A model generated the notes under the pieces. It was given only the letters and a program-made list of their open reading frames with translations, was not told the DNA's origin and made no database searches. Below, one piece after another: positions 25,755 to 32,000 of a stretch of 32,000 bases of DNA. Within the stretch, counting starts at the first letter, position 1; each line of letters begins with the position of its first letter. The position numbers were made by a program, and so were the translations under genes. The DNA is from Trichlorobacter lovleyi SZ (lineage in GTDB: Bacteria; Desulfobacterota; Desulfuromonadia; Geobacterales; Pseudopelobacteraceae), in the NCBI RefSeq assembly GCF_000020385.1, contig NC_010814.1, positions 2,370,001 through 2,402,000 of the forward strand. The letters run 5' to 3'.

Positions 25755-27317
25755 ATGAGCGACCAGTCTACCCAGACACAGGAAAGCAAGCCGGACGGAC
25801 AACGTTTTTACCACGCCCAGACCGGCTACCAACTGATCCTGAGCCTCTCTCAGGATGAAATGGAGTGCCGCGCTCACCTTGAGGTCAAGGCTGACGGTTC
25901 TACGCCAGGCGTGGAGGAGTTGACGGGCTATCTGGCTGCAAACGGTATCACCACCGGTATTGACGACGAAGCCGTACACCTGCTGCTGAGTGAGGCGCGT
26001 CCCGGTACAAGCACCAACGGATTACTGGCAGCCGGCATCCAGCCGCAGCGCGGGGAAGACGGCACACTTGCCTTCAGCTTTGCCCCCGCTGATCAGCCAC
26101 CCGCCGAGTCCGCGGCAGATGACGACCCTGAAAAACGTCAGATCGACTTCAGGGCGGTGCAGCAGTTCATTAACGTGGATCCTGACCAGGAAATCGGACG
26201 GATACTGCCCCCCACCAACGGCATCCCCGGCAGAACCGTGCGTGGCAAACCGGTCCCGGCCGAAGCAGGCAAGACGCTGGTGCTCAAACTGGGCCAGAAC
26301 GTCCGTTCAGGCGGCGAGCATAACGATATCCTGATTGCCGAAATTCACGGACGGGTCAAGTTGGAAGGCGAGACCGTCCATGTAGTTGAAGAATATGTGG
26401 TGGATGGCGATGTTGACTTCAGCATCGGCAACATCCGTTTTAACGGTTTTGTCGAGGTGCGCGGCGATGTGCTGGACGGTTTCCAGGTCAGCGCCAGTAA
26501 GGGTCTGAAGATCACCGGCAATGTGGGAGCCTGCCGCCTGATATCCCACGGCAACATTGAATTTTGCGGCATGGATGGTCAGGGTAAGGGCAGCATCCTC
26601 TGCGGCGGCACCATTACCGCCCACTTTATCCACGACAGCGCCGTTGAATGCTGGGGCAACATGCTGGTCGATGTTGAACTGCGCAACTGCAGTGTCCATT
26701 GCCGCGGCAGCCTGATCACCGGCCTGCTGGCAGGCGGTGACTGCGTCACCCTGGCGGGTCTTGAGGCCAAGAAGCTGGGAGCCCCCTCCGCGGTCAAGAC
26801 CGTCATCCATAGTGGCGTTGACTACCACGACCTTGACCGGATGCACATCCTGCTCGAACAGCTTGAGGCCCTGCAGCAGCAGATCGCCAAAACCAAAGAC
26901 CTGCAGGAGCAGAGTTCCCTGACAGAAAAGAAGCAGCAGCTTGCCCGGGTCATCCTTGATGTCCGTTCCCACCGTCCAGCCGGATCAAACCCGAAGATCA
27001 ATATCAAAGACCGGGTGCATGAAGGAGTTACCATCTATCTGGGGGATGCGGTTGAAGAGTTTGTGGCCGAACTGTCCGGCCCGATCAGCCTGATCGAGAA
27101 CAGCCGTGAAGGAGGATTGCGCAGGCTCAGCCTCAGCAGCCTCGAAATCCCGGCCGGCGAGCTTGAAAAGGCCTGGCTAGAAAAGGACGAACTGGAGCGT
27201 CAGGAACGCCTCAGGCAGGAGGCGGCTGAACGGGAGGCCGCAGAGACAGAGGCAGCCAAAGCCCCTGATGAAGCGGAACAGGAAGGGCCTGCTGCTGAAC
27301 CACCAGCTCAGGACTAA
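25755..27317 (+). CDS. FapA/DUF342 family protein
   Basis: 520 aa. Central beta-helix-like repeats (GNIRFNGFVEVRGDVLDGFQVSASKGLKITGNVGA...GNIEFCG), a coiled-coil and an acidic C-terminal tail, as in DUF342 proteins. Confidence 0.7.
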   Translation: MSDQSTQTQESKPDGQRFYHAQTGYQLILSLSQDEMECRAHLEVKADGSTPGVEELTGYLAANGITTGIDDEAVHLLLSEARPGTSTNGLLAAGIQPQRGEDGTLAFSFAPADQPPAESAADDDPEKRQIDFRAVQQFINVDPDQEIGRILPPTNGIPGRTVRGKPVPAEAGKTLVLKLGQNVRSGGEHNDILIAEIHGRVKLEGETVHVVEEYVVDGDVDFSIGNIRFNGFVEVRGDVLDGFQVSASKGLKITGNVGACRLISHGNIEFCGMDGQGKGSILCGGTITAHFIHDSAVECWGNMLVDVELRNCSVHCRGSLITGLLAGGDCVTLAGLEAKKLGAPSAVKTVIHSGVDYHDLDRMHILLEQLEALQQQIAKTKDLQEQSSLTEKKQQLARVILDVRSHRPAGSNPKINIKDRVHEGVTIYLGDAVEEFVAELSGPISLIENSREGGLRRLSLSSLEIPAGELEKAWLEKDELERQERLRQEAAEREAAETEAAKAPDEAEQEGPAAEPPAQD

Positions 27318-28681
27318 TCCGTCACCACCCTGATCGCCTTATTCAGCCCTTCCATCAGAAATGCCAACTCATCTTCTGTAATGGCCAGCGGCGGGAACAC
27401 CACCACCGTATTGCCCAGCGGACGGGAAAAGACCCCGTGCCTGCGGGCCTCCTGACAGACCCTCACACCACGTTTTTCCTCCCAGGGGTACGCTGCCTTC
27501 GTCGCCTTGTCCTGCACCAGCTCAATTCCGGCTGCCAGGCCGCACTGACGCAGATTACCCACATGGGGATGATCCTCCAGCTGCTGCAGCAAAGCCGTCA
27601 ACTGTTTACTGCGTTGCCCGACCGACTCCAGCAGACCGGTTTCCTCAAACAGCTCCAGACTGCGTAATGCAACAGCGCAGGCCAGCGGATTGCCGGTAAA
27701 GGTATGGCCGTGAAAGAAGGTCTTCAGCTCAGCATAATTCCCCAGAAATGCCTGGTAGATCTCCTCAGTTGCCAGAGTGGCAGCCAGCGGCAGGTAGCCC
27801 GCACAGAGCCCTTTTGAGATTGCCATGATATCCGGTGTCACCCCCTCCTGCTGACAGGCAAACATACTGCCGGTACGCCCGAAGCCGGTGGCCACCTCAT
27901 CGGTGATCAGCAGCACGCCGTAACGGTCGCACAGCTGACGCACCCCTTTAAGATACCCGGCGGGATGCACCAGCATCCCGCCCGCCCCCTGCAGCAGCGG
28001 CTCCATCAGCATCCCGGCCAGATATTCCCTGTGCTCACACATCAACTGCTCCAGCGCTTCCAGGCAGGCCATGCCACAGGCTGCCGGATCGCTCTGTCCC
28101 ATGGGACAACGGTAGCAATAGGGCGCCGGGGCCTCAATGGTTGAAAACAGCAATGGCTTGAAGGTATCGTGATAGATAGAGATCCCGCCCACACTCATGG
28201 AGCCGATGGTATCGCCATGGTAGGCATGCTGCAGCCGCAGGAACCTGCTGCGTTGCGGTTCACCTTTATGGCAGTGGTACTGATAGGCCATCTTCAGCCC
28301 CACCTCCACCGCCGTGGAACCGTTGTCGGAATAAAAGACCTTGCGTAATCCGGCCGGTGCGATCTCAATCAACTGCTTTGCCAGCAGGATTGACTGTTCG
28401 CCCGCCAGCCCCAGCAGGGTTGAATGCTCCAACCGGGCAGCCTGATCAGCCAGCGCCTTGTTCAAGGCAGGATGACTATGACCATGCACATTGGTCCACA
28501 TCGAGGCCACACCATCCAGGTAACGGCTACCGTCCGAATCGATCAGCCAGCTTCCTTCCCCCCTCACGATCACCAGCGGTTCTTCCGCCAGCCAATCCTG
28601 CATTTGGGTAAAGGGGTGCCAAACATACTGCTTGTCCCAGCTCTGAAGCTGGGCCGTAGGCATATTTTCAGTAGCATGCAT
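27314..28681 (-). CDS. bioA: Adenosylmethionine-8-amino-7-oxononanoate aminotransferase
   Basis: 455 aa class-III aminotransferase. YVWHPFTQM opening, DEVATGFGRTG, PLP-lysine context AISKGL. Confidence 0.85.
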   Translation of the reverse strand: MHATENMPTAQLQSWDKQYVWHPFTQMQDWLAEEPLVIVRGEGSWLIDSDGSRYLDGVASMWTNVHGHSHPALNKALADQAARLEHSTLLGLAGEQSILLAKQLIEIAPAGLRKVFYSDNGSTAVEVGLKMAYQYHCHKGEPQRSRFLRLQHAYHGDTIGSMSVGGISIYHDTFKPLLFSTIEAPAPYCYRCPMGQSDPAACGMACLEALEQLMCEHREYLAGMLMEPLLQGAGGMLVHPAGYLKGVRQLCDRYGVLLITDEVATGFGRTGSMFACQQEGVTPDIMAISKGLCAGYLPLAATLATEEIYQAFLGNYAELKTFFHGHTFTGNPLACAVALRSLELFEETGLLESVGQRSKQLTALLQQLEDHPHVGNLRQCGLAAGIELVQDKATKAAYPWEEKRGVRVCQEARRHGVFSRPLGNTVVVFPPLAITEDELAFLMEGLNKAIRVVTD

Positions 28682-28959
28682 ATATTTTGACCTCTCCTGC
28701 AGTTGCGAATATACATAAATATGCTATAAGCGGTACATGTAAGACCCGCTTAGTCCTCTACAACAACCACTTTCGTTTGATATACTAAAAATGCTCGCCG
28801 GGCAACACCCGGCAGCTCCGGATCAACAACTGCAGCAGATTTCTGCAAGGCCTATCATGCAGACAAGGAACCGACACGGACCAGCGGCGCCCCACGACTG
28901 CTGCCGGACCTGTGCTGCAGAGCAGAGCCTCGCTACACATTTATCCTGGAGAAGAGATC

Positions 28960-29508
28960 ATGCCCCAGAAAGAAAACGACAACATCGCCCATGACAAGTT
29001 AAAAGCCATGATGGAAATGGCGGCCCTGGTCAACTCATCACACGAACGTTCCGTCATCATGGACCACGCCGTAAAATCCGTCTGCCGCCTGACCGGCGCA
29101 GAAGCCGGCAGTCTGCTGTTGCTCGACGAATTTACCGGACACCTTGATTTTGAAGTAGTCACCGGCGGCAGAGAAGAACTTTTGCCGTTCTTCCGTGTCC
29201 CCAAAGGCCAGGGAATTGCCGGGTGGGTTGCCCAGAATGACCTGCCGATCATAGTACAGGATGTCCAGTCCGATGAACGTTTCTTCAAGTTTACCGATCA
29301 GGAACTGGGCTTTACCACCCGTGACATGATTGCCGTACCACTGCGAGTCAACGGAACGGTCATCGGGGTCTTGCAGGCGATCAACAAAAACTCCGGCTCC
29401 TTCAACCATGATGACCTGAAACTGGCCATGGCATTTGCCAATCAGATCGCCTCAATCATCAACAAGACAGATAAGGAACAGCCACACTGCTCAACCTCCA
29501 GTGCATAA
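28960..29508 (+). CDS. Stand-alone GAF domain protein
   Basis: ATG 28960 follows GGAG. GAF-like core (AEAGSLLLLDE...LDFEVVTGG...GQGIAGWVAQN...PLRVNGTVIGVLQAINK). Confidence 0.75.
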   Translation: MPQKENDNIAHDKLKAMMEMAALVNSSHERSVIMDHAVKSVCRLTGAEAGSLLLLDEFTGHLDFEVVTGGREELLPFFRVPKGQGIAGWVAQNDLPIIVQDVQSDERFFKFTDQELGFTTRDMIAVPLRVNGTVIGVLQAINKNSGSFNHDDLKLAMAFANQIASIINKTDKEQPHCSTSSA

Positions 29509-29658
29509 AGGGCTTTAAAAACGTCATGAGGAAGGCTGGATACAAGGCGCACCAGCGCATCGACCAAGACATAACGGAATAGTCAGGCGAGGAAGAGAGC
29601 ACCGCGCAACGCCGTAGACAGACTCCGCAGCAGTTTTTCAAAGACCTGATAAAGCCTC

Positions 29659-29688
29659 TTGACTCTCAGCGGGCTGATTAGGTATAGT
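29659..29688 (+). promoter_or_regulatory. Sigma-70 promoter for tRNA-Leu (TTGACT-18 nt-TATAGT)
   Basis: TTGACT at 29659-29664 and TATAGT at 29683-29688. The tRNA 5' end is 12 nt downstream. Confidence 0.6.
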
Positions 29689-29699
29689 CGCAAAACTTT

Positions 29700-29785
29700 G
29701 CCAGAGTGGTGAAATGGTAGACACAGCAGACTCAAAATCTGCCGAGGGCAACCTCATGCCGGTTCGAGTCCGGCCTCTGGTACCA
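29700..29785 (+). tRNA. tRNA-Leu (anticodon CAA), class II with a long variable arm and encoded CCA
   Basis: Acceptor GCCAGAG/CTCTGGT. Anticodon stem GCAGA/TCTGC with loop CU-CAA-AA. Long variable arm. T-arm GGTTCGAGTCC. Terminal ACCA. Confidence 0.93.
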
Positions 29786-29816
29786 CAGCACAATCCAGCA
29801 TCATCCGATGCAGACT

Positions 29817-29850
29817 AAAAGCCCTTGAGCATTCAAGGGCTTTTTTGTTT
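29817..29850. terminator. Rho-independent terminator after tRNA-Leu, possibly bidirectional towards intI
   Basis: AAAA-GCCCTTGA-GCAT-TCAAGGGC-TTTTTTG: a perfect 8 bp stem flanked by an A tract and a T tract. Confidence 0.8.
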
Positions 29851-29903
29851 CTCTGGCAGGCCAGTCCGGTTGAGGCCAGTCAGACGGAAAGCACCAATAC
29901 CTG

Positions 29904-30881
29904 CTAGGCAAGCCGGTCCAGCGGCGACATCACCCCCATCCCGCCCTTGTTCAGCACATGGGTATAAATCATCGTGGTCTGCACATCCTTGTGTCCCAGC
30001 AACTCCTGCACGGTACGGATATCATACCCCGCCTGCAGCAGATGGGTCGCAAAAGAATGCCGCAGGGTATGGGGCGTCACATTCTTGGTCAACCCCGCAT
30101 CAACCGCAGCCTGCTTGATCGCCCGCTGCAGCCCCTTTTCATCCAGATGATGCCGTCTGGTCACACCGGAACGGGGATCAACCGATAACCGCGCAGACGG
30201 AAAGACATACTGCCAGACCCACTCCCGCCCGGCATTGGGATACTTGCGGGCAACACTCTCAGACAGCCAGACCTCACCGTACCCCTTTAAAAGATCCTGC
30301 TCATGCGCCTGCTTTACCTGTTTCAGATGTTCCTGCAACGGCTTGAGCAATGACTGTGGCAGCATGGTCACCCGGTCTTTACCCCCCTTACCCTCCCGAA
30401 TCAGCAGCTCGGCTCTTTCAAAATCAAGATCCTGCACACGCAGCCGCAACCCCTCCAGCAAACGCATACCGGTACCGTACATCAGACGGGCCAACAAAGC
30501 ATAGGCCTGTGGCACATGGGCCAGCAGAGAATGCACCTCTTTCTCGGTCAGCACCACCGGCAACCGCTTCGGCTTTTTGGCCTGTTCCACCTCATCCAGC
30601 CAGGGCAACTGAATTTCAAGCACCTCTTTATACAGAAACTGCAGAGCTGCCTTGGCCTGATTCTGGGTGGCAGCCGCCACCTGCCGCTCAGTCGCCAGGT
30701 ACGTTAAAAACCCCTCAATTTCTTTCTTGCCCATCTCTTGCGGGTGCCGTTTATTGTGATACAGTATGTAACGCTTTGCCCAGTCAAGGTACACATCCTC
30801 AGTCCGGCGGCTGTAATGTTTCAACCTGATACGATCACGCAACTGGTCCAGCAACTTCGGCTTGGCAGATTGATTTTGCAT
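29904..30881 (-). CDS. intI: Integron integrase IntI (tyrosine recombinase)
   Basis: C-terminus is nearly IntI1-like ([52 protein letters not shown]). It contains the IntI-specific insertion [27 protein letters not shown]. Start taken at ATG 30881 (AGGGGA RBS); the track ORF extends to 30929. Confidence 0.9.
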
Positions 30882-30984
30882 GACGTTTTCCCCTTTATAT
30901 TTAGGACGTTTTTTATTTGTGTTAGGCAAATAATAACAGCTAATTGAGAAAAGTCACGCTACACAAACCGACAATTTGACGTTT

Positions 30985-31021
30985 TTTACAAAAAATTTAG
31001 GACGTCTAATAAACGTTAGAG
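30985..31021 (+). promoter_or_regulatory. attI crossover region with a candidate outward promoter (TTTACA-16-TAATAA) and core site GTTAGAG
   Basis: TTTACA at 30985-30990, TAATAA at 31007-31012 and GTTAGAG at 31015-31021. The last of these is complementary to the cassette-1 inverse core CTCTAAC. Confidence 0.4.
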
Positions 31022-31043
31022 AATGTTTTGTAGGAGGTCGTAA

Positions 31044-31403
31044 GTGACCAGCCTTGTATGGATTTTACCTATTGCAATTGTATTGGTTTTTTTCGTTATG
31101 GGCAGAAGTGCTTTCATTACCTTCATCAGAGATGACATTCCAATTTTTGCAAGAGCGTGGTCGGAATCATCGCCAACACAGAAGGTTTCAATTAGGTTAT
31201 CATTATTCCTTTATGTTTTTGTCCCCTATGCAAAGTTTGTATTTACTGACCACCCCAAAACTCTCCAAGTTTTTACTGATCATGTAGCTCCATTTTTATA
31301 CGGGCTTGCTGAAGCACTATTAGCGGTCGGCTTTGTTATATTCATACTCAGAACAAATCGTAGACATGCCTTATTACGAATAATGAGAAGGCAGCGACGG
31401 TAG
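31044..31403 (+). CDS. Cassette 1 ORF: 119 aa membrane protein of unknown function (3 predicted TM helices)
   Basis: GTG start with GGAGG 6 nt upstream. Hydrophobic helices and a basic C-terminal tail (RIMRRQRR). AT-rich codon usage unlike the flanking genes. Confidence 0.6.
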   Translation: MTSLVWILPIAIVLVFFVMGRSAFITFIRDDIPIFARAWSESSPTQKVSIRLSLFLYVFVPYAKFVFTDHPKTLQVFTDHVAPFLYGLAEALLAVGFVIFILRTNRRHALLRIMRRQRR

Positions 31404-31416
31404 CCAAGCAACCATT

Positions 31417-31549
31417 CTCTAACGGCTCAATCAACTCGGACTGGCTAACTGTCCGCGCAATTTCAGCAGTTTCGCAATCGTCAGTTAGTCAGTTAGTCAA
31501 GCAGCACCGCTCCGGCGTCGCCAGCCGGTTATCTCGTACACGTTAGGCG
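31417..31549 (+). repeat. attC site of cassette 1 (R'' CTCTAAC ... R' GTTAGGC)
   Basis: Inverse core CTCTAAC at 31417-31423. AACTCGGACTGGCT pairs imperfectly with AGCCAGCCGGTT (31519-31530), leaving extrahelical bases. Core GTTAGGC at 31543-31549. Confidence 0.75.
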
Positions 31550-31553
31550 CATT

Positions 31554-31955
31554 ATGCAAGCCAGCATCAATTTTAAAATTACAAAAATTGCAGTGGCTAT
31601 TGTCAGCGGCTTACTCACAGTATTTTTTGTGCCCTGGGCTGTGTCGTTTGTGCTTGCCAGCTTTAGCTGGTTGCCTGCAACAACAGGTTTCGTACATTTT
31701 TTCATAGGGTTAGCAGCTCTGGTGGGCGTAATCGCATTTTGGTTTCGTTTTTTTAGTAGTCCACCTTTCAGTGCATTACGACGCTGGGTGCTTTCAATCA
31801 GCATTGTTTGCGGTATTTGCTCGGCATTATCGGTGCTTGTGTTGCTAACTATTCGGGCATCATGGGATTTTAACGGTATAACAGCGGCATTACTTTTCAG
31901 TGTTTTCATAGGTGTTTTGGCCATTGCATCACTATGGTTGCCTACAAACGCCTAA
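31554..31955 (+). CDS. Cassette 2 ORF: 133 aa membrane protein of unknown function (4 predicted TM helices)
   Basis: The ATG lies 5 nt after the attC core. There are four hydrophobic helices. The stop TAA is embedded in the inverse core GCCTAAC. Confidence 0.6.
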   Translation: MQASINFKITKIAVAIVSGLLTVFFVPWAVSFVLASFSWLPATTGFVHFFIGLAALVGVIAFWFRFFSSPPFSALRRWVLSISIVCGICSALSVLVLLTIRASWDFNGITAALLFSVFIGVLAIASLWLPTNA

Positions 31956-32000
31956 CGGCTCAATCAACTCGGACTGGCTTACTGTGCGCTGAATTTCACC
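31950..32000 (+). repeat. attC site of cassette 2 (5' part, truncated by the window end)
   Basis: GCCTAACGGCTCAATCAACTCGGACTGGCTTACTGTGCGCTGAATTTCAC is almost identical to 31417-31467. Confidence 0.75.

Follow-up and report, generated by a model that had tools for sequence, protein, structure and literature searches.

Among described integrons, the superintegron of Vibrio cholerae (integrase VchIntIA, VCR attC sites) holds ~180 cassettes over ~126 kb, and in the Geobacterales the integrons of Geobacter metallireducens and G. sulfurreducens are present in the integron literature. For G. lovleyi, at least two intI genes were reported by Nemergut et al. 2008 (PMC2426708), one of which was placed, like one intI of G. 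metallireducens, immediately outside a clade made up mainly of Betaproteobacteria, and the second within a deltaproteobacterial clade. Here, we describe an integron in a 32,000-nt stretch of the genome of Trichlorobacter lovleyi SZ (3,917,761 + 77,113 bp), located at positions 2370001–2402000 of contig NC_010814.1 (C1) and hereafter called the window; positions of the array past 32000 are given as window-equivalents. Two genes of this genome are positive for TIGR02249, which fits the two intI genes of Nemergut et al. 2008. The locus almost certainly houses a chromosomal integron that is complete, classical and of the sedentary type, as predicted from an intI gene, an attI site and 16 cassettes with attC sites. 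It is an ordinary, already known kind of integron with an intI that has been catalogued since 2008, and its novelty is low.

With the V. cholerae superintegron the locus shares the divergent intI/attI arrangement, a single-orientation array at a fixed chromosomal position, a long (~120–130 nt), homogeneous and lineage-specific attC family, and toxin-antitoxin cassettes amid mostly ORFan cargo, but it is much smaller (16 cassettes over 12 kb), has another attC sequence family and resides in a deltaproteobacterial (Geobacterales) host. VchIntIA residue W157 corresponds to R in the T. lovleyi IntI, and IntI1 has R at this position. The integrase falls in the same IntI lineage as the integrons of G. 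metallireducens and G. sulfurreducens and the “soil/freshwater” group of Betaproteobacteria (Nitrosomonas, Dechloromonas, Azoarcus), from which the locus differs by a 132-nt attC family that is almost confined to the genus Trichlorobacter. The recombination chemistry and the layout of the attI simple site (inverted boxes with upstream direct repeats) resemble those of mobile resistance integrons (classes 1–3), whereas there is no transposon or plasmid, resistance genes are missing, the attC sites are homogeneous, and the integrase scores 378 bits against the class-1-type equivalog NF011946, below its cut-off of 435 and thus outside the class-1 type. The locus represents one more sedentary integron in Geobacterales, a group whose integrons have been catalogued since 2008, and changes no open question, while offering a clean, delimited example that is recognisable from the raw sequence alone, with 16 cassettes, an attI set by comparison and an attC family of 132 nt that extends across the genus and is supported by covariation.

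The integrase, the attI region and the cassettes that begin inside the window are arranged as follows (bit scores of attC sites refer to R1, a covariance model built from 30 attC sites).

29904–30881, (−) strand: intI, encoding a 325-aa integron integrase (start codon ATG at 30881), intact, divergent from the array
30882–31021, (+) strand: attI region with direct repeats, simple site and core, delimited from the sequence and related loci
30930–30957, (−) strand: candidate sigma-70-like intI promoter (GTGACT, 16-nt spacer, TG-TATTAT), from a consensus scan only
31016–31542, (+) strand: cassette 1, 527 bp, a boundary-to-boundary match to cassette 6 at 100% identity
31044–31403, (+) strand: open reading frame (ORF) of cassette 1, small hydrophobic protein of 119 aa (or 101 aa from a later start)
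31417–31548, (+) strand: attC of cassette 1, 132 nt, R'' CTCTAAC to R' GTTAGGC, 139.7 bits
31543–32075, (+) strand: cassette 2, 533 bp, crossing the window end at 32000
31554–31955, (+) strand: ORF of cassette 2, hydrophobic ORFan of 133 aa
31950–32081 (C1:2401950–2402081), (+) strand: attC of cassette 2, 158.2 bits, only its 5' part (to 32000) inside the window

The intI ORF (29904–30881) contains no internal stop codons and its product scored 480.3 bits against TIGR02249 (cut-off 265) over profile positions 1–315 of 315, while all Xer models remained far below their own cut-offs. The VchIntIA structure (PDB 2A3V) aligned without a break to IntI residues 12–324 (E 4e-98), and Xer chains could be aligned only as two pieces flanking residues ~189–240, a segment that is the IntI-specific additional domain. 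All catalytic residues (R, K, HxxR, H and Y; RKHRHY positions) are present as read from the 2A3V alignment, in which their motifs, including IYTHV, line up with the VchIntIA counterparts. The ATG at 30881 was preferred to an upstream TTG as the start codon because the 2A3V alignment opens at residue 12 and a ribosome-binding site (GGGGA) lies ahead of this ATG. A preliminary description of the window, made from the sequence alone, had proposed an IntI with the integron-specific insertion, divergent from the array; the TIGR02249 score and the continuous 2A3V alignment through residues ~189–240 agree with it. The same description had named an inactivated integrase, or one outside IntI, as evidence that would speak against an integron, and the uninterrupted frame together with the TIGR02249 and Xer scores shows neither.

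The intergenic region between intI and the array (133 nt) carries direct repeats ATTTAGGACGT at 30899–30909 and 30995–31005, followed by a simple site of the form TCTAA-N6-TTAGA, which ends in the core GTTAGAG (31015–31021) with the crossover point G|TT at 31015/31016. The block TTTAGGRYGTCTAATAAACGTTAG of the attI region is kept across ~19 related loci, among which similarity breaks off right after the GTTAG of the core and the first cassette is different in each genome; the recombination point is therefore defined by comparison. An inverted pair of GTTA boxes (GTTAGGC...TAAC) at 30921–30937 overlaps the candidate promoter at 30930–30957, which lies in a block conserved in relatives and which we infer to act as the intI promoter. 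No LexA box (CTGT-N8-ACAG) was seen by eye. The conserved attI/promoter block of T. lovleyi SZ is contiguous with the intI start codon, unlike in the T. thiogenes-like relatives (L004 ~1094–1436, L005 ~2516–2876, and L006), where ~340–360 nt of unrelated sequence separate the two.

When the 12 kb past the window are considered, the array spans C1:2401016 to ~2413080 (window-equivalent 31016 to ~43080) and consists of 16 attC sites in one orientation, mostly of 132 nt (range 121–132 nt). A genome-wide search with the attC 5'-half pattern recovered 15 copies in the array and one elsewhere, while R1, run on the genome with filters off, recovered 16 in the array, all in a single orientation, and a solitary site at C1:61237–61373, with hits nowhere else. 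The 16th array site, found by R1 only, is divergent and measures 121 nt (window-equivalent 32851–32971), and the array is therefore counted as 16 cassettes, not 15. That the array would leave the window with more cassettes downstream had been anticipated, along with a covariance-model run and a count past 32000 as the way to find out: beyond the two attC sites that start in the window there are 14 more, all in the same orientation, which gives the 16 sites of the array. The AT-richness ascribed to the array was also recovered, with a GC content of 45–47% vs. 54.8% for the chromosome (intI 55.6%).

In the integron mechanism, IntI would bind the folded bottom strand of attC, in which the R and L boxes pair and two bulged R''-L'' bases mark the strand, and would recombine it at G|TT with double-stranded attI or with another attC. 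Given recombination at G|TT, cassettes begin with TTAGnn and their own attC begins with the complement nnCTAAC. The preliminary description had placed the start of cassette 1 at G|TTAGAG (31015–31021) and that of its attC at CTCTAAC (31417–31423), and for cassette 2 had given G|TTAGGC (31543–31549) and GCCTAAC (31950–31956), coordinates that proved exact in all four cases. Along the array, the first 7 nt of attC (R'') are the exact reverse complement of the preceding 7-nt core in 14 of the 15 testable cassettes (cassette 12 was excluded owing to an insertion sequence (IS) of the IS21 family), and the rule also holds at the junction of the attI core and cassette 1. When R'' was permuted in 100,000 trials, the mean was 2.8 matches and the maximum 11, with none at 14, which puts the rule far beyond chance. 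The signature of attI x attC and attC x attC recombination first read from two cassettes extends to nearly the whole array. It is the expected footprint of a G|TT crossover in a circular cassette, which is established integron biology and no new property.

Near-identity of the first ~50 nt of the two attC sites in the window, also remarked on beforehand, amounts to 44 of 51 positions, the ~27 nt past a variable triplet being identical. Among the 12 distinct full sites of the array, pairwise identity has a mean of 79% and a median of 83% (87% without two divergent sites), which we judged to agree with the homogeneity of roughly > 80% attC identity within an array taken as characteristic of sedentary chromosomal integrons (SCIs). 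The cores nnCTAAC...GTTAGnn are found in 14 full attC sites, and in folds of the bottom-strand DNA, CTAACG recurrently pairs with CGTTAG, and AACCGGCTGGC with GCCAG-T-CCG-A-GTT. The stems were aligned over 30 distinct attC sites (12 from the array and 18 from eight related loci, nine loci in all), across which pairing reached 99.4% in the R stem and 100% in the 11-bp L stem, with compensatory changes at 5 of the 11 L-stem pairs (e.g., CG replaced by GC at two of the pairs, in three sequences) and two single-base bulges retained on the R''-L'' arm in 30/30 sites. Register-shift controls, in which partners were slid by 1–3 columns, gave only 20–36% pairing, and none of 500 shuffles reached the observed values. 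Failure of the attC sites to fold as R''-L''/L'-R' had been put forward as a sign against an integron; both stems and the two bulges, backed by compensatory changes, are what the alignment contains. In an Rfam search of 27000–32000 (E ≤ 1) only a tRNA was returned, and neither of the two window attC sites matched any family.

An unrelated dispersed 127-nt repeat (29517–29642, ~27 copies) adjoins the locus, and one could therefore ask if the array is no integron at all, but a repeat family resembling repetitive extragenic palindromes (REPs) or miniature inverted-repeat transposable elements (MITEs) beside a Xer-type recombinase. We give this next to no credence, as it is refuted on four counts: with one exception, every attC-family hit belongs to a single array beside intI, with a common orientation; the boundary complement is exact in 14/15 cassettes; the integrase scores above the IntI cut-off and below those of all Xer models; and attI similarity in relatives stops right after the core GTTAG.

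Of the 24 congeners searched, about half carry an orthologous IntI (~470–490 bits). Among named records, the closest integrases belong to Trichlorobacter thiogenes and to Trichlorobacter/Geobacter metagenome-assembled genomes (80–92% identity), and the nearest outside the genus to Geobacter (~68–69%) and Betaproteobacteria (Gallionellaceae, Sulfuricella, Nitrosomonadales; ~66–67%). The attC family captured by R1 occurs in 20/24 congeners (the highest count being 23 hits over several contigs, in G003) vs. 2/16 genomes from other genera of the order; the family had been called species-specific in the preliminary description, and its restriction to a lineage holds, while the level is that of the genus and not of the species.

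In G013, the closest relative by synteny, the left flank is shared (GAF gene, tRNA-Leu, intI, and attI), and right-flank homology resumes 12 nt past the last, degenerate attC. The G013 array measures 5.25 kb vs. 12 kb here, and the one shared cassette occupies position 1 in G013 and position 13 in T. lovleyi SZ. A second relative, G002, shares the bioA side and lacks the tRNA, and other congeners carry the same IntI and attC family without it. Judging by these alignments, the platform is seated at a fixed chromosomal locus at which the cassettes turn over; such a locus, inherited within a lineage and free of transposon or plasmid, is what is expected of an SCI, as seen from both flanks in G013, from the bioA side in G002 and from the IntI orthologues and attC family of most congeners. 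On its left, the integron adjoins the following elements.

29700–29785, (+) strand: tRNA-Leu(CAA), predicted by ARAGORN and with 56 bits to the Rfam tRNA family, 118 nt from the intI stop codon
29817–29844, (+) strand: terminator-like hairpin between tRNA-Leu and the 3' end of intI, a 12-bp stem followed by a T run

The tRNA-Leu, which the preliminary description had also placed next to the integron, could point to a genomic island integrated at this gene, with the integron as its cargo and the whole unit mobile. The distance of 118 nt to the end of intI would suit such an island, and so would the AT-rich array and the IntI relatives outside the genus, which include Betaproteobacteria at ~66% identity; the latter was likewise noted by Nemergut et al. 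2008 (PMC2426708), who proposed horizontal transfer. However, no partial repeat of tRNA-Leu that could mark a second end exists anywhere in the genome, for which reason the idea was rejected. No directly repeated tRNA 3' end was found beyond the array, nor a close relative with an empty tRNA-Leu site and joined flanks, and the unit has no P4-type integrase or transfer genes. In G013 both flanks are shared, homology being back 12 nt past the last attC, so that only the cassettes vary, and congeners without the tRNA have the same IntI and attC family. We thus regard a mobile island as very improbable. With no tRNA-Leu fragment repeated in the genome, and with an adjacency common only to the closest relative, the tRNA appears to be a neighbour and not a functional part of the integron, its position looks incidental, and the locus looks sedentary with turnover of cassettes.

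Cassettes 1 and 6 match at 100% along a stretch of 532 bp that runs from the G of the upstream core into the downstream core. Excision as a single strand followed by re-insertion at attI could produce such a pair, and new or re-inserted cassettes would enter at attI, where an upstream promoter could express them; the cassettes of the array are promoterless. Since cassette 1 abuts attI, and attI has no homology to attC, integrase-mediated re-insertion is the simplest explanation of the identity, which suggests that a copy of cassette 6 was recently re-inserted at attI. A bolder version, in which the integron is currently active, cassette 1 is a very recent re-insertion and the ORFan small membrane proteins are unrecognised modules (e.g., compact anti-phage or stress functions), is one we entertain only tentatively and consider rather unlikely as a whole. 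Modules of the anti-phage/stress type have recently been reported in other sedentary integrons, and the protein of cassette 2, for which no homologue exists in 5.8 billion sequences, is nevertheless maintained as a tandem pair.

Several observations weigh against a complete classical integron of the sedentary type. Recombination activity is read from the sequence only, cassette 13 departs from the boundary rule by one base, and no (+)-strand consensus promoter that could serve as the cassette promoter Pc was detected by a consensus scan of 30700–31015, which returned only the (−)-strand intI candidate. The array has 16 attC sites, one of them cut by the IS21 element and one without R', and so remains below the size of ~20 attC used for SCIs; Cury and colleagues are said to have set a threshold of 20 attC sites for “sedentary chromosomal integron” in 2016. 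Minimum free energies of whole attC sites are unremarkable when compared with shuffles (z-scores −2.2 to +1.0), and the support for the attC structure is therefore the covariation in conserved stems and not the folding energy. Moreover, the R and L stems are separated by an unpaired spacer of 10 nt vs. 8 nt, which is longer than in canonical attC sites.

Some of the same features would suit a real integron that is by now a frozen relic, intact in sequence and no longer recombining (e.g., with a silent intI or a missing host factor), in which change comes only from IS elements and homologous recombination. Two IS elements sit in the array, one of them behind a rearrangement, the last attC is without R', Pc was not detected, and attC sites with ~87% identity could allow cassettes to be duplicated by homologous recombination. 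Such a relic is nevertheless improbable in our view: intI has an unbroken ORF and every catalytic residue, the identity of cassettes 1 and 6 stops precisely at the G|TT crossover points, attI beside one of them offers no attC homology for unequal crossing-over, and the cassette content differs almost wholly from that of the syntenic G013, the one shared cassette being at another position.

In the complete sedentary integron favoured here, the remaining cassettes are, in window-equivalent coordinates where given, the following.

32076–32608: cassette 3, tandem copy of cassette 2 with 97.6% identity
32609–32965: cassette 4
32966–33772: cassette 5, hicA-hicB on the antisense strand
33773–34299: cassette 6, identical to cassette 1
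Cassettes 7–10: small ORFs
Cassette 11: ORF with a BFD-like [2Fe-2S] domain; attC interrupted after 36 nt by an IS21-family element of 2424 bp
Cassette 12: remnant
Cassette 13: 361 bp, cassette (+) strand without an ORF
Cassette 14: contains an IS256-family element of 1377 bp
Cassette 15: ORF of 163 aa
Cassette 16: second hicAB pair, 87% identical to cassette 5; attC without R'

The HicA and HicB Pfam families were matched in cassettes 5 and 16, and these antisense HicAB toxin-antitoxin cassettes probably stabilise the array. The other cargo consists mostly of small ORFan proteins, several of which are membrane proteins, and most cassette ORFs had no match in Pfam, NCBIfam or PADLOC (0/10 cassette ORFs in PADLOC). 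The protein of cassette 1 is among those without a match in any of the three and has three metagenomic homologues (57–67% identity), while the sole match of the cassette-2 protein among 5.8 billion proteins is itself; both ORFs are missing from the 40 relatives searched. These ORFan cassettes are candidates for function screens, and the R1 model together with the cassette table can be used for mining Trichlorobacter metagenomes for further cassettes.

The IS21-family element lies at window-equivalent 36547–38970 (L001 7547–9970), is 2424 bp long and encodes istA (504 aa) and istB (254 aa). Nine identical copies are found on C1 (the array copy plus eight other sites), as well as one at 77% identity. 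Several of the other copies are flanked by target-site duplications of 5–6 bp while the array copy has none, which implies a deletion or an inter-IS recombination after the insertion into attC 11. By comparison, the IS256 copy in cassette 14 has an 8-bp target duplication (TGAAGCGA) and thus represents a simple insertion. In the genome at large, several IS21 copies are without target-site duplications, which suggests frequent IS-mediated rearrangement.

The second integron-integrase-like gene of the genome is located at C1:2764512–2765873 on the (−) strand (L093 6512–7873) and scored 353 bits against TIGR02249 (cut-off 265). It encodes 453 aa with an N-terminal extension of ~139 aa, and such long frames (~420–540 aa) turn up again across the order, in many genomes. 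Around the gene, neither an R1-family attC nor a clear attC array was found, the only attC candidate in its vicinity being a 70-nt ACTAAC...GTTGGT palindrome 6 kb away (L093 14052–14121). This gene is probably the “clade 15” intI of Nemergut et al. 2008. The solitary attC at C1:61237–61373 (L002 5237–5373; R1 68 bits) is situated just 3' of a third hicA-hicB pair, in sense orientation; this pair is flanked by genes for a 3-methyladenine glycosylase and an AbiGi-family protein, and pair and attC together look like a single cassette inserted outside the integron.

The dispersed intergenic repeat (~127 nt, MITE-/REP-like) with a local copy at 29517–29642 has no Rfam match, and its ~27 copies are spread across the chromosome with 73–85% identity; in the relatives L004, L007, and L088, a copy with 89–90% identity is located directly 3' of the intI stop codon. 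Directly past the array (window-equivalent 43204–49000; L001 14204–20000) follow genes for a response-regulator/MshEN-domain protein, a radical SAM protein, a PfaD-like enoyl reductase and a large ketosynthase, which look like a cluster of the polyunsaturated-fatty-acid or polyketide type and are retained in G013 with 86–93% identity.

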